From Paecilomyces variotii (taxonomy: Eukaryota): a DNA stretch of 64,000 nucleotides. Below are positions 58,119 to 64,000 of this stretch, one piece after another. Each line of letters opens with the position of its first letter. The first letter of the stretch is position 1. A program made the translations under genes and the position numbers. The stretch lies in the NCBI GenBank assembly GCA_004022145.1, contig RCNU01000002.1; one strand, written 5' to 3'. The notes under the pieces are model-generated. The model was not told where the DNA came from and made no database searches. It worked only from the letters and a program-made list of their open reading frames with translations.

Positions 58119-59266
58119 CTCCATATGGAACTGTCATCTCACTCAGACTTAATCGATAAAACACCCTTCTACCATCATATCTAACGTTATGAATGAATGG
58201 TCACTCCCTCTCGATAATTGAAACCAACACGGAACCGCCATTTCTGCCACTGGACGAGATTCTCATTCGTCACGGTAAAGCTTGCACCTTCAGGTTGCAC
58301 AACATGTAACGGCTTCAGATCCTTTCCGACAGGCTTCTTCAACAGATCAGGAAGATACTCATGTTCCACACAATGCGCCATAGGCGTTTCAGGAGGAGCG
58401 GTTCCATACTTCAGCCCATCTTCCGCTCCGCCAGATGCGAGAGTGTCCATGCGCACGATCTTGTTCTGGAATCTGTCGAGAACCAGCGAAATCGGAAGCG
58501 GAAACGCCATATTGGTTGCTAAGTATCTGGGTGGTTATGCGGTGCGCGAGCGTACAGATAAAGTTGCGAATACTTGGGAGTGTCAAGATCGGAGAACTTG
58601 TCTGAACCGTAGGGCCAAGTATCGCATTGAACCACGACGTCTTCAGGGAGGTGTAGTTTCTTGACAGCCTCTACGACTAAAGGGTCAATTCAGTGCCATA
58701 TCAGCCATTTCTCGCGGGTCACCCCCTGGAGATTGTACATAATTAGCACTGTTCGCTCTTCTTATTCTTATAATTATGATTACTCTGCATGGAGTTACAC
58801 ATGCATAATATCCGACAAGACATGCGAAGCATATGATTAGGAAAGTACCCAAAACAAACCAAAAAAGGAAAAAGGAGAAGCTCACCTATCTATCGGCGAA
58901 TGCTGCCCCTTCGCCGCCTTGAGCACCTCACCCTCAGTATCCGTATCCAAACTCACCACGCTCTCAAAAAAACTCCCTCCCATCTCCAATAGTATAAACT
59001 ACCTCTACCAGACGTGGTACAAACGGTCGCGAACCAACTGGGACGCCTGCGCTCTCCGCGTCCAAGTAAGGCAGTAGTAATGCCTTGGGAGACTCACGGA
59101 GTGAAATGCTCTTGAATCGAATCGAGCATTTTGATCCTCTCTTTTCATGAACAACTCGAGAAATGATACGTGATGCTGTGCGGATTTCGTCCGGGTTGAG
59201 GTTTAGGAGGGGATGGGATCGGGTCGTTGTAGGTGTAGTTGTACTGGTGATATTTGCGGTAGCCAT
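58119..59266 (-). pseudogene. Copper amine oxidase pseudogene, 5' half only
   Basis: HPLLNLNPDEI, RFKSISLRESPK, DTWPYG, NQYAFPLP, LKPLHVVQPEGASF, WQKWRFRVGFNYREG, YRLSLSEMTVPYG. Six frameshifting insertions. The sequence breaks off in an intron at the TE patch, and the TPQ and Cu-binding half is absent from the window. Confidence 0.88.
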
Positions 59267-60263
59267 GGTATTCTATGCTGCGGGGGATGTGCGTAGGAAG
59301 GGCTGCTCTTCGAAAATGTGCCCTTTATATATCTGCAATTCCCACATCCCACGCAAGCACCCAGAATAGCAAACTGGATAGCTCATCAATCAGATAGGAC
59401 GATATGTCCGATACGGCCTGTTGTGCCTATCAGAACTGCGATTGTTAGGCAGCGGGGTTCGGGGAAACGAGATAAGCAGAACAAACCCGCATCGACCTGC
59501 CCAGATGGATTGCTGACTATTGCATTCTCAAGACCTTTCCGCCATGATGGTTTGGGGCTTTCAGTATGAGTGGATTGATTCAGAGGCCGGCATTGACATT
59601 CAAATAAATCCCTGAGCATCAAGCCATACTTTCCCAGATGACCACCCGTTACGTTATCAAACTTCATCCGGGACTAAGACGATACCATTCCAGGATACTG
59701 GCATGAATCCCCAAGTGAGACGCTCTACAATGTTATTTACATAGGACAGATAATCATGGCTCTCAGACGTGGAGAATACGTTATAGTTGAAGTTATGACA
59801 CTCTGGAAATATTCCCTGCTTTCTACAACCCCGGATCTCGGCTCTGAGAGCACTATTCTGGTTATATTGAAGAGAAGTTATTTATTATTGGCTGCATCTA
59901 TAACAGATGGTATGGGGGAGTCCTGCCAAAGCCGACGGAGGGCCTCATCCATACTGGTATATCATTGCGCACATATCCTGGCCACATAATACATAATCGG
60001 CACAAAATAGATCAAAAAAGATAACATGACAAGAAACGGTCGTGGATATGTGATCAGAGACTGAATTTATACACGTCAATCATCAGAGGTAAAACAAAAA
60101 AGAAACTTCCGGACGCCTTCGCTCTCTCAAACCTCAGAAAGCAGGTTCAGAGTTGATGGACCTAACTGGCACAATATACAGAAATCGAGAAGCGCAGGCG
60201 GGCTGCAAACGGCCACCCATCAGAAAACTGGTGTATTATGGAGGAACGCCGGTCGCCCTGTTT

Positions 60264-62923
60264 TTATGCAATGCCCTGGGTTTCAAGGCCCTGCACTGCG
60301 TTGTACGAGTAAGGGAAGTCGACTAGCCCATCGAGAAGCCAGTTGAGAGGGTCAAAGACTTCGTAATTAGGCTCCATAAAATTGCTCGGCAGGCCAGAAA
60401 CACCGCCGTTGGCAGGTGTCATCCCGAGGCCGGCTGATGGCATGGAGGGGGCTGGAGCCAGACTGGGATCACCACCACCAACAGCAGGAGTCGACGAGTT
60501 TCGTCCTGGAGCAGTGGAGGATGTTGCTGAATTATCCGCACTGGAGTCTGGGTTGGTCGGATTCTTGAGATAGGCTGTATAAATTGTTAGAAAAAAGAAC
60601 ACACAACACTACGTTTTCAGGCAGTACACTTGATCGTACCTTCGATATTTCTTCCCCTTGTCTGTGCATCTTCTCTCCATCTCCACACTGAATCATACAC
60701 GAGCGACATGCTCATGCGGCAGCGCACCCTCAGCTGCAAAGAATCATCAATTTCGGCGTTACTGCCCGTAGGTCGCTGGCTAGGAGTTCCGCCAAGTCTC
60801 CACATTTGGGCAAGCACTTCAGCGAGCCGTTCCGGAAGATCGTTGTTAGAGACAGAGATAGCTCGAATGGCCCAGATGGTCCTGTTGAATAGATTTCTGC
60901 TGTACTCCAGATCGATGTGTGCCGCAAAAAAGCTCTTGCACAGTTTGAGAAGGGTGAAACCAGCAGCCAACATCATCTGATATATGTAATAAGGGGTATA
61001 AGAGAGCACTGGGCCGACATGGGTCTCAAGATTCAAAGCAGCTTCCAGAAATGCCGTCGTCGCGCTATGTAGAGACAGAAGACCTTCCCGGTAGTCTTTA
61101 GCTGTCGGGTTATCGAAAAAGGCAGACAGATGCAGATGTAGATTGGAGGCGCGCAAGTAGAGTTCAGTTATCGCTTGTAAAGTCAGATCCCGTACTCGCC
61201 ACAAAGAATTGTGTTGACAAGTCTTACCGTCATTATCAGATCTAAGCTCATCTTCCAGATCGTCAAAGTCTCTGGACAGGAGAGAGACGACTGCAGACCG
61301 TTCACTGTCACTAGAGAGGCCAACTGGATCCCGTCGGTTGTTGTACAGCGCTTTTGTGATCTTATCGCAGAAATTCTCGATATCAAGCCTAGACCTGATG
61401 TCGCTGGGAAGCTTGAAATTGGGATCAGCGGATTCACCACTGGACAGAGTCCAGTCATACAACGTCGAAGGAGGTTGCCCGTAGCCAGTAGCAACCCTGG
61501 AAGAAAGCAGGTCAACACCCGTAAAATAATGCCGCAGGAGAACAAGGAGACATACCTCTGTGCGACAATGTTGCAGACGGCCCAGGTTCTCACTTTGTCT
61601 CTCAGTTCTTCCTCCATGAGTTCGATGCGGAACTTGCTGAAATCCTGGGTGTGTGAAGGCCGATGGAGACCAAGCTGCATTGCAACCTGCATCATCATTC
61701 CGCAAAGCATGAATGTAGGGTCGGTTGAGGTGCTGCTTGTGGGAAAAGGCCATGTGCAGAGTAGGCACAGAGGCTTAACCACATGGTAGCTCTGTGGGAT
61801 GTCCGCTAGAGTACTCCAGACCAGTCTTGTGACCGGAGCAGCAAGTGAGTTTAGAAGATGAGAATCCGTTTGGTAACGACGGGCCCCGACACTTATGATT
61901 GTCCAGAAAAGCAATGGTGACGTGGAGTAATAGTCGTCCGGGGACTGGTCTCTGTCAAGGAATGGCAGAAACGGATGATAAAAGGTGAAGAATCTATACA
62001 CAGTTAGCTGTTATGCAAGACGCCAAAATCAGGGCAAAGGAAAATCCATACAGATTGAACAACTCGGTCACCCTCTCTGGAGCCACCATAACATCTTCAA
62101 TTCGCTTAAATTGATGGCCACCGTTCCTCATATAACTCGAAGAACCATCAAAGCCTGACCGCAAGTCCAGCAGTGATGCGACGGCCTCGTGTGAACCCAT
62201 GTATTGGTCTGCGGACATTCCCGACGAGCCCTGGTAGACTCCGGCTGCACTGCTTATGGGCGTCGAAATGGACGGTGTCTCTTGCTTTGTCGGTGTCAGT
62301 TGCGGCTGCTGTTGATTCATGGACGCAGCAGCAGCAGCGGCGGCGGCGGCATTGGCGTTTGCAACCTGCTTCCTCAGCTCGATGATCTCCCGCTCCATTT
62401 CCGCATTGCGGCTGCGTTTGCCTATCCGCTTGAAGTTCGACTCGATTTTGCACTCGAGCTTGAGACGGCGACACCGAGAGCACGTCGTGAAGGGATCCTG
62501 AACGACATCGCACCGGAGCTGTGACCATGACCAATCAGTTAGCAACGCTGTTCGCAACTAAATGCTCTTCCTCTGCATCCAGACTATCCCGTCCAACGAT
62601 AGCCAGATCCATTCTGCGCTCACCTTCTGCTGTCGACACTCATTGCAGGCCCGTTTCACTGGCTGCCTCCTCTTATCCTCTTGTCCATCATGGTCTTCTA
62701 TATCGTCTGTACTCCCCGGGGAGCTATCGATCCCAGCCACCGAGACATTGCGCTTTTTCGCCTGTGGCAGACCCGATGACACCCCAGCAGTAGGAGAATG
62801 GCCAACCGTCCCTCTTATCGGACTGACTACTGCAGACGCATTGTTGTTCCTGTTCGGCCCCAGGACTTCCCCTTTCACCCCTCCACCTCCGATTCCGCTC
62901 GAGGAGCCCGCGAGAGACGCCAC
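60264..62923 (-). CDS. leuB: Leu3/LeuB-type Zn(II)2Cys6 transcription factor, 6 coding exons; start codon inferred (GTG)
   Basis: VKRACNECRQQK|LRCD..CSRCRRLKLECKIESNFKRIGKRSRN resembles the yeast Leu3 cluster (CVECRQQK). Middle homology region, RMSMSLVYDSVWRWR, and acidic DPLNWLLDG tail. The symbol is assigned from recalled similarity. Confidence 0.75.
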
Positions 62924-63118
62924 GCTGGGTAAGCTGTGAAACACGCAATGGCTAGAGCTCGGACGAGAAAAAAAAGATCAGCCGATCGGCCACGGACGAG
63001 CAAGAGGCCCAATTCGGTCCAGTCGCGGCGCAGTGAGAGCTATCTGGTATAGCTTACTCTGGACGATAAATTTATTTTCCTTTTTTTTTTTCCCTTCTCT
63101 CTTAGACTTGATGCCGAA

Positions 63119-63273
63119 TGACTCGTTCTGGACCAAAGTCGGCGCCCCTCGACGATAGATGAGTAACCGGGGCCGAGTGGGGGTTGCGCTTTCCGATCTC
63201 GCTCGCCGTTTTCTGTCAGGTGACTCAGCCGCACGTGAGACTTGATGAGTCATCTATCTCCTATCTCACGTGA
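63119..63273. promoter_or_regulatory. Cluster of Gcn4/CpcA-type sites and E-boxes upstream of the LeuB-like gene
   Basis: ATGAGTCAT 63245-63253, TGACTCA 63221-63227, TGAGTAA 63160-63166, TGACTC 63119-63124, CACGTG 63232-63237, TCACGTGA 63266-63273. Confidence 0.65.
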
Positions 63274-64000
63274 TGCAAGTTATCTATCACGTTCTCCGCA
63301 GAGCCTCACTCAATAGTTATTAATAGCCCCGCAGATCCCCATGACCCAATGACGCAGGACTGCAGATTGACTATATCATTGCTTACTGCAACACTGCCTC
63401 ATCTCGCCTCGCACGGCTGAATAGATACGGTTGCGACATTAGTACCTACTTATCAATTGCTTCTACTCTCTCTACAACTCTTCTGTGTGACTAAGTCTCT
63501 ACTTGTGAATAACCAGGTTAGAAGACAACGTGTCGTGGATGGATAGGTACATAGAGAATACGACAGATATTATTGAACTGGTCTCGTGCTATTTTAAAAC
63601 CGCGGAGCGTTGGGGGCCATTATTTGGTTGCTTTTTAGTCTCTAATCACCAGGCGCAGGGCTCAGAGCCTCAACATGCTCTACCCCTCGTTTTTCCAGCC
63701 TCATAAGGCGTGCTAGTCAGCCTTGATAGTTGAACTTTACATGCACCCCGAACTCATGCATATAAAGGCAGACATGGGTACTGCCAAGCTTGGAGTAAAT
63801 AGATAATAACAGAGTCATATTAAAGACTTACATGAGCCTCTGAACCGTCCCTTTCGTTATTGATTTTGTCTCACAGCAAAGATTGGGCACTTTCGGCCGC
63901 TTATCTCAAGGATCAAGTTGTGCTTTCTCGACAGATCCTTGCTTGCGAGTATCATCAAGGAGCAGAAAATTGATGATCTGATCTTCCAACTGAGATGGAA

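Follow-up and report, generated by a model that had tools for sequence, protein, structure and literature searches.

A conserved near-cognate codon as the probable start of the transcription factor LeuB in Paecilomyces variotii and other Eurotiomycetes

How is a transcription factor made complete with its DNA-binding domain when the first in-frame AUG of its gene lies behind that domain? The question is raised by a Zn2Cys6 transcription factor gene, to judge from its sequence the orthologue of leuB/LEU3, on the minus strand (60264-62923) of a 64,000-nucleotide (nt) stretch of Paecilomyces variotii contig RCNU01000002.1 (GCA_004022145.1). We call this stretch the window, and all coordinates refer to it. 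A sequence-only reading of the window had proposed that a near-cognate start, GTG 62923, is needed to include the zinc cluster, and both conservation across homologues and assembled RNA contigs support that proposal. From the sequence, the splicing pattern, the conservation and the coding signature described below we infer that full-length LeuB very probably initiates at GUG 62923, a near-cognate start kept across much of the Eurotiomycetes.

The identity of the gene, suggested by the same reading as LeuB-like, is upheld by cluster membership, Pfam domains and a quick tree. A query with exons 4 and 5 returned 560 matches, and among the 120 matches listed many carry the name Leu3. A. nidulans AN4486, ‘protein leuB’, falls in the cluster of a 71%-identical match (P0058). 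PF00172 and PF04082, the zinc cluster and Fungal_trans domains, score above cut-off on P0002, a 93%-identical match, and the quick tree groups the window gene inside the Eurotiales clade. The next copy after leuB in its own genome is 41-43% identical. From residue SPGSTDD onward the protein is identical to P. variotii record P0122, which is the same on 14 P. variotii contigs. Binding to CCGN4CGG and the response to alpha-isopropylmalate are known for LeuB/Leu3 of A. fumigatus and yeast, proteins other than that of the window (PMC6221358).

Read from GTG 62923 on the spliced mRNA, the frame encodes 772 amino acids (aa) with cysteines at 93, 96, 103, 113, 116 and 123, and its first Met is residue 141 (codon at 62398). 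All five introns are joined in the contigs of the three spliced RNA runs (X2, X4 and X8), which come from three studies; a fourth run is unspliced throughout and uninformative on introns. Such contigs drop rare splice forms and give no transcription start site. The gene is laid out as follows.

62921-62923, minus strand: GTG, inferred LeuB start codon (772 aa), with C-4, A-3, G+4 and C+5; aligned with CTG/GTG in homologues
62624-62923, minus strand: coding part of exon 1, 92 Met-less codons before Cys1 and then the first half of the zinc cluster
62450-62647, minus strand: Zn2Cys6 cluster, Cys93 to Cys123, interrupted by intron 1 (PF00172 on P0002)
62519-62623, minus strand: intron 1, within the zinc cluster, joined in all three spliced runs
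62052-62518, minus strand: exon 2, remaining half of the zinc cluster, with Met141 (RNA contigs)
62396-62398, minus strand: first in-frame ATG (Met141), 3' of the cluster, overlapped by the +1 open reading frame (ORF) from 62406
61556-61993, minus strand: exon 3, region of the Fungal_trans domain (RNA contigs)
61228-61496, minus strand: exon 4 (RNA contigs)
60640-61173, minus strand: exon 5 (RNA contigs)
60264-60574, minus strand: exon 6, through the TAA stop (RNA contigs)

The coding part of exon 1 is unspliced in the X2, X4 and X8 contigs, and shows triplet indels and codon periodicity. Two further details of the gene body may be recorded. Intron 4 (61174-61227, minus strand) is 54 nt long, in frame and stop-free; its retention would add 18 residues, and it is spliced in all three runs. 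Records P0122, P0128 and P0125 of P. variotii differ in the length of a poly-alanine tract 3' of the cluster (62319-62363, minus strand).

The sequence-only reading described the start region correctly. The minus strand holds no ATG from 63250 to 62842, and the chance of an ATG-free run of 409 nt is 0.038 under a dinucleotide Markov model and 0.002 under base shuffling. The frame is open and Met-less over the 92 codons from GTG to Cys1, no stop interrupts the frame of GTG 62923 before the coding body, and on spliced mRNA the first in-frame AUG (Met141) lies behind all six cysteines. Near-cognate codons occur in frame 18 times ahead of the cluster; within the preceding 330 nt, only that at 62923, in the context CCCAGC-GTG-G, combines A-3 with G+4. 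A sequencing error at this position is rejected, as none of the four runs shows a base difference there; one of them derives from a strain that carries five other substitutions in the same contig, yet 62923 is unchanged. RNA editing to AUG was considered as well, and the contigs, to which this check was confined, contain no differing base.

The features proposed upstream of the GTG fared less well. Two candidates lie here.

62952-63057, minus strand: proposed intron of the 5' untranslated region (UTR), with GT and AG present, not joined in contigs X2, X4 and X8
62978-63253, minus strand: 91-codon AUG ORF in the frame of the gene, closed by TGA, not conserved, without Pfam match

The proposed 5'UTR intron is not supported by the contigs, which are continuous from 62624 as far as 63091 or 63274. 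The notion that a spliced upstream exon supplies an AUG finds no counterpart in them either, and ATG 63253 would lose the frame of the gene if 63057 were joined to any of the three acceptors in the vicinity. Since the spliced contigs of three studies span the region without a 5'UTR intron, no upstream exon supplies an AUG. The further suggestion that a miscalled A-run (63081-63091) hides a continuous frame does not hold, for X2 has matching bases through the run. ATG 63253 is in fact already in the frame of the gene, a point absent from the earlier reading, and is closed by TGA 62980-62978. Translation could thus be imagined to begin at this ATG and to read through the TGA, or to follow a frame that an error in the A-run conceals, and the X2 contig does extend to 63274. 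However, X2 has identical bases including the TGA, X1 lacks one base at 63092, within the ORF, which breaks the frame of ATG 63253, the X4 and X8 contigs both end at 63091, short of the ATG, and in homologues stops occur 6-51 codons upstream at varying places, along with non-triplet indels. We consider this route very improbable. The shared end of X4 and X8 itself points only weakly, if at all, to a 5' end, because 63091 is the edge of the A-run.

Is the codon conserved? We collected 35 metagenome loci, of which seven near-duplicates were removed to leave 28 distinct loci, and removal of L015 and L026, with less than 75 nt upstream, left 26. By protein matches and a quick tree, these comprise 19 loci among or beside the Eurotiomycetes and seven distant AUG-starting homologues. 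The 19 are seven Eurotiales, one dermatophyte, seven Chaetothyriales (L004, L010, L013, L025, L028 and L033 were placed there by protein matches and the quick tree), and L003, L007, L008 and L014, whose placement is less firm; L012 and L014 were placed by protein match only. The distant homologues (L001, L017, L020-22, L030, L034) are about 40% identical and only possibly orthologous, and five of them form a long-branch group in the quick tree.

Of the 19 Eurotiomycete-like loci, the window excluded, 17 have a CTG or GTG that is in frame and flanked by A-3 and G+4, as against 2 and 1 in the other two frames. This count used only the criteria of the sequence-only reading, fixed beforehand. The same criteria give 1, 1 and 1 across the three frames of the seven distant homologues. 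A stricter motif, CA-NN-[CG]TG-G[CT], is found in frame in 18 of 27 loci against 0.81 expected; the preset criteria are the fairer test, because this motif was defined after the loci had been inspected. In the window and the 18 motif loci, a set itself chosen by the motif, CTG occupies the position 11 times and GTG eight times, with C-4, A-3 and G+4 in 19/19 and C+5 in 18. The encoded residue swaps between Leu and Val while the near-cognate nature of the codon persists. It lies 61-97 codons before Cys1. In annotated relatives outside the Eurotiomycetes a Met is found 67-86 residues before Cys1 in 22 of 24 (automatic annotations); this distance matches the near-cognate range and therefore suggests that the Eurotiomycete start descends from an AUG ancestor. 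The motif is missing from three paralogues of the same genome, all of which possess an in-frame AUG. A Leu3-like paralogue, L040 (G000:C1:137072-139206), is 41-43% identical, near-identical in the first half of the cluster, and has ordinary AUG starts.

The coding signature begins at the same codon. In eight Eurotiales sequences the near-cognate codon occupies one alignment column. Counted over pairs, which are not independent, gaps come in triplets in 119 of 119 cases downstream of the codon and in 23 of 84 upstream; the corresponding counts are 43/43 and 35/81 in Chaetothyriales, and 12/12 and 2/28 in four other loci. Identity at the three codon positions of the Eurotiales is 0.69/0.67/0.50 over the first 35 codons and 0.35/0.38/0.46 upstream, so that third positions are the most variable only downstream of the near-cognate codon. 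The coding boundary at this codon is sharp. Public protein models show the same transition: long models from Aspergillus, Penicillium, Talaromyces, Thermomyces and Elaphomyces are divergent upstream and alike from Leu/Val-Ala-Ser/Ala on, and V-A-A-L follows unrelated N-termini in 5 of the 10 Onygenales models listed. For A. nidulans, A. fumigatus and the Onygenales, bar one dermatophyte, protein records were the sole source for Leu/Val.

Could the boundary instead mark an exon? Several gene predictors assume as much, and the conserved CAG before the codon would then be a splice acceptor joined to an upstream exon that supplies the AUG. AG stands at -3/-2 in 10 of the 19 loci, some public models change abruptly at the codon in a splice-like manner (P0134, P0008, P0148, P0072), and the contigs drop rare splice forms. 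This explanation nevertheless fails, because the AG keeps neither place nor frame (it is at -2/-1 in 6/19 and absent in 3/19) and no CTRAY branch motif precedes it within 40 nt in any of the 19 loci. The spliced contigs of the three studies are continuous across the site, the spliced contig L018 has 148 nt upstream without ATG, and predicted upstream exons vary even within one species (P0134, P0144, P0145). We regard a hidden acceptor as quite unlikely, if slightly less so than readthrough from ATG 63253.

Initiation at the conserved codon has to be weighed against a third possibility, that initiation is spread over weaker near-cognate codons (ATC 62893, GTG 62878, CTG 62863, ATC 62731) or, in other lineages, falls on the in-frame AUG, the conserved codon being a minor start. 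The 18 in-frame near-cognates before the cluster, the Met that close relatives have at the position of ATC 62731, and usable AUGs in other lineages all speak for it. Conversely, only 62923 has A-3 together with G+4, the coding signature starts exactly there, position 62731 is L, I, M or F among orthologues, and codons past 62841 lie behind an AUG in good context. Such dispersed initiation is improbable, although the least so of the alternatives.

The following observations weigh against GUG 62923 and its counterparts as the general start. All 35 loci were found with one exact degenerate peptide pattern at the start of the cluster. The exceptions to the 17/19 count are L016, the dermatophyte, with an AUG start and no motif, and L031, whose CTG stands in another frame. 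In six Aspergillaceae-like loci an in-frame AUG follows the near-cognate codon and precedes the cluster. All six intact Chaetothyriales loci have an in-frame AUG, in open frame and at no shared position, 90-516 nt upstream of the CTG or GTG; therefore the codon may be internal or secondary there. Annotation of two close relatives, P. lecythidis and ‘P. variotii No. 5’, begins at a Met 30 residues ahead of Cys1; the corresponding window codon is ATC (62731). The non-AUG start is thus not the sole possible start everywhere. A hairpin downstream of the start codon, a frequent but dispensable aid to initiation, reaches z below -2 in only 1 of 17 loci (0.06 in the window).

In the orthologue comparison called for by the sequence-only reading, the codon is conserved as CTG/GTG, in one column in Eurotiales. 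An open frame that reaches the cluster without any in-frame AUG is found in the window and in five loci, L003, L007, L008, L014 and L018; the upstream sequence of the L018 contig, ATG-free, spans only 148 nt. Aspergillaceae-like loci with the AUG nonetheless retain the near-cognate codon and the coding signature, and in six Chaetothyriales loci no AUG lies between that codon and the cluster. Upstream of the CTG, the Knufia/Exophiala-like loci L010 and L013 keep an open frame for 107 and 215 codons and encode similar peptides there, and the L010 gene is intronless over the stretch available; a longer AUG-initiated form is possible in this lineage. The frame of L031 slips by one base about 90 nt past the CTG, before the cluster, where a KRN stretch is missing, and this looks like a deletion, either an assembly error or a broken copy.

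What would happen to ribosomes that pass the GUG? The out-of-frame AUGs listed in the sequence-only reading (62841, 62748, 62691) are present, and with 62688 and three more make seven, all in the +1 frame. Two features of that frame concern us here.

62827-62841, minus strand: first +1 AUG ORF, four codons, A at -3; counterpart in 8/8 Eurotiales loci
62815-62817, minus strand: +1-frame TAA; Penicillium-like loci overlap the stop of an upstream ORF (uORF) with an in-frame AUG here, and the window codon is AGA, not ATG

A +1 AUG with A-3 is found at +73 to +85 in all eight Eurotiales loci. It arises from an Asn-Ala codon pair, and because T before G already occurs at 54% (32/59) in downstream coding DNA, its presence in eight related loci is only modest evidence. 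In four of the five loci having the annotated AUG the +1 ORF overlaps it, ending in TAATG (L005, L009, L029) or ATGA (L012); in the fifth, L002, it runs across. The window and L011 retain the TAA and encode Arg where those loci have the AUG. Two statistics, both modest as the loci are related, may be added: +1 AUGs are enriched N-terminally (81/105 NAY-G pairs vs 32/59 in downstream coding DNA, Fisher p 0.003), and Ile, Val and Leu codons at the +1 stop are of the rare NTA type in 5/6 cases against a background of 11%. Conserved upstream AUG uORFs of the GCN4/CPC-1 type were not found: the closest ATGs on the upstream side are scattered over -90 to -521 at unshared positions, and the conserved AUG sits downstream of the near-cognate start, not upstream. 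Leucine sensing by Leu-rich +1 peptides was considered and dropped, since the Leu follows from main-frame Ala codons.

The finger-less AUG isoform suggested earlier receives no support from this arrangement. Seven +1 AUGs precede Met141, which makes such an isoform unlikely, and the last of their ORFs (62406) overlaps Met141, an internal residue of an RSRNAEMERE stretch in AUG-starting relatives. A more radical version holds that the AUG was lost in this lineage and the gene now gives only finger-less protein, or none. Some public models do have no cluster or half of it (P0128, P0067, P0059), but the frame and the six cysteines are intact, the gene is expressed and spliced, the P0122 protein is conserved across its 14 contigs and five other loci show the same arrangement; this is the least credible of the alternatives.

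We therefore return to initiation at the near-cognate codon, and propose the following course. Under the established scanning model, ribosomes would begin full-length LeuB at GUG 62923, with the optimal context C-4, A-3, G+4 and C+5 backing the weak codon; CUG and GUG are the most efficient near-cognate starts (PMC5666671). Those that pass it would encounter the first out-of-frame AUG 82 nt further on, and another six ahead of Met141, yielding short peptides and hardly any finger-less protein. LeuB output would then equal the fraction of ribosomes accepting the GUG, which would keep the DNA-binding regulator scarce. In the window and the five loci without AUG, GUG/CUG would be the only start before the cluster; in Aspergillus/Penicillium-like loci it would give an unannotated extension of about 32-37 codons, the annotated AUG being overlapped by the +1 ORF.

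We speculate, tentatively and with more doubt than belief, that the Eurotiomycetes swapped AUG for CUG/GUG together with a +1 AUG trap, so that the LeuB level reads start-codon stringency or nutrients; that the predominant LeuB of Aspergillus and Penicillium begins at the CUG, any AUG form being a switchable short isoform; and that a near-consensus LeuB site upstream closes a feedback loop. If so, the control of leucine, nitrogen and iron would gain a translational layer, alongside AreB and CpcA. The sequence-only reading, too, had suggested that the amount of full-length LeuB may be set translationally, near-cognate starts being inefficient and sensitive to eIF1/eIF5 stringency. Control of LeuB/Leu3 has been described as post-translational (PMC6221358). 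The upstream site in question is the following.

63193-63202, minus strand: GCG-N4-CGG decamer, candidate autoregulatory site, one base off the LeuB site CCGN4CGG

The consensus LeuB site is CCGN4CGG (PMC6221358). A [GC]CG-R-N3-CGG decamer, a pattern defined after the loci were inspected, occurs no more than 300 nt upstream of the start in the window and 20 homologous loci, 21 of 27 in all, against 2.1 expected from shuffling. Within that distance it is missing from five Aspergillus/Penicillium-like loci, L031 and three paralogues, and it also occurs in distant AUG-starting homologues. The decamer may be an autoregulatory LeuB site, or an RNA element.

At 63335-63900, just upstream of leuB, another RNA contig starts, with a length of 7172 nt in X2 and 786 nt in X4; it probably represents a neighbouring, possibly divergent transcript that shares the intergenic region. 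The next gene downstream (from window position 59272 downwards, minus strand) starts near 59266; its N-terminus (HPL..L...EI) resembles that of copper amine oxidases.

Public gene models disagree in the start region. For P. variotii alone there are two models that exclude each other, with a start at ATG 62841 and an intron or with an ATG inside intron 1, and the RNA contigs contradict both. The first model implies a further feature.

62724-62827, minus strand: intron implied by model P0122, whose start is the +1 AUG 62841 and which reaches the main frame by splicing; absent from RNA contigs

N-termini of leuB models are inconsistent throughout (P0002/P0122, P0128, P0067, P0059, P0158, P0134, P0144/P0145), with faults that include a false intron, an intronic ATG, a missing cluster and unrelated upstream exons; such inconsistency could flag other non-AUG genes. 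If the CUG/GUG start is true, the public models of many genomes are wrong, with invented exons, a false intron or a lost zinc cluster, and published residue numbering and expression constructs rest on unmapped N-termini. The accepted start of a well-studied protein would shift, the amount of LeuB may be low or adjustable, and a third amino-acid/nitrogen regulator of these fungi would rely on near-cognate initiation. To our knowledge, sole non-AUG starts that decide the presence of a transcription factor's DNA-binding domain are rare.

A conserved non-AUG start in LeuB, a known regulator, has apparently not been reported: the open literature searched holds no report for LeuB/Leu3, subscription papers (the first A. 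nidulans leuB papers; Wei et al. 2013) and supplements lying outside that search. The term ‘start codon’ is absent from the main text of PMC6221358 and PMC8262921, and the non-AUG-start cases returned by the literature search include no zinc-cluster factor.

How does the LeuB start compare with known systems? As an orthologue the window protein shares the Zn2Cys6 and Fungal_trans domains of A. nidulans and A. fumigatus LeuB and S. cerevisiae Leu3. In Aspergillus, LeuB connects leucine synthesis, nitrogen metabolism and iron uptake (PMC6221358). The numbering used for A. fumigatus LeuB runs to 920 aa and places a cluster Cys at 240 (PMC6221358), and A. nidulans LeuB records have 727-731 aa; neither model fits a start at the conserved Leu/Val. 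Sole non-AUG starts have been described for Podospora IDI-4 (CUG proposed) and for mammalian DAP5/eIF4G2 (GUG) and TEAD1 (AUU), and in mammalian C/EBP-beta a near-cognate start is followed by an out-of-frame AUG ORF (PMC5487733, PMC5666671); all four belong to protein families other than that of LeuB. N. crassa CPC-1 is closer, being an amino-acid regulator with conserved near-cognates that carry A-3 and G+4 and a codon that varies by branch, but it has a main AUG, two regulatory uORFs and several near-cognates that add an extension (PMC5487733). In the A. nidulans transcription factor AreB-gamma a highly conserved GUG start yields an N-terminal extension, an optional 116 aa added to an AUG isoform (PMC6494665). 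In the LeuB of the window, unlike AreB, no AUG start includes the DNA-binding domain.

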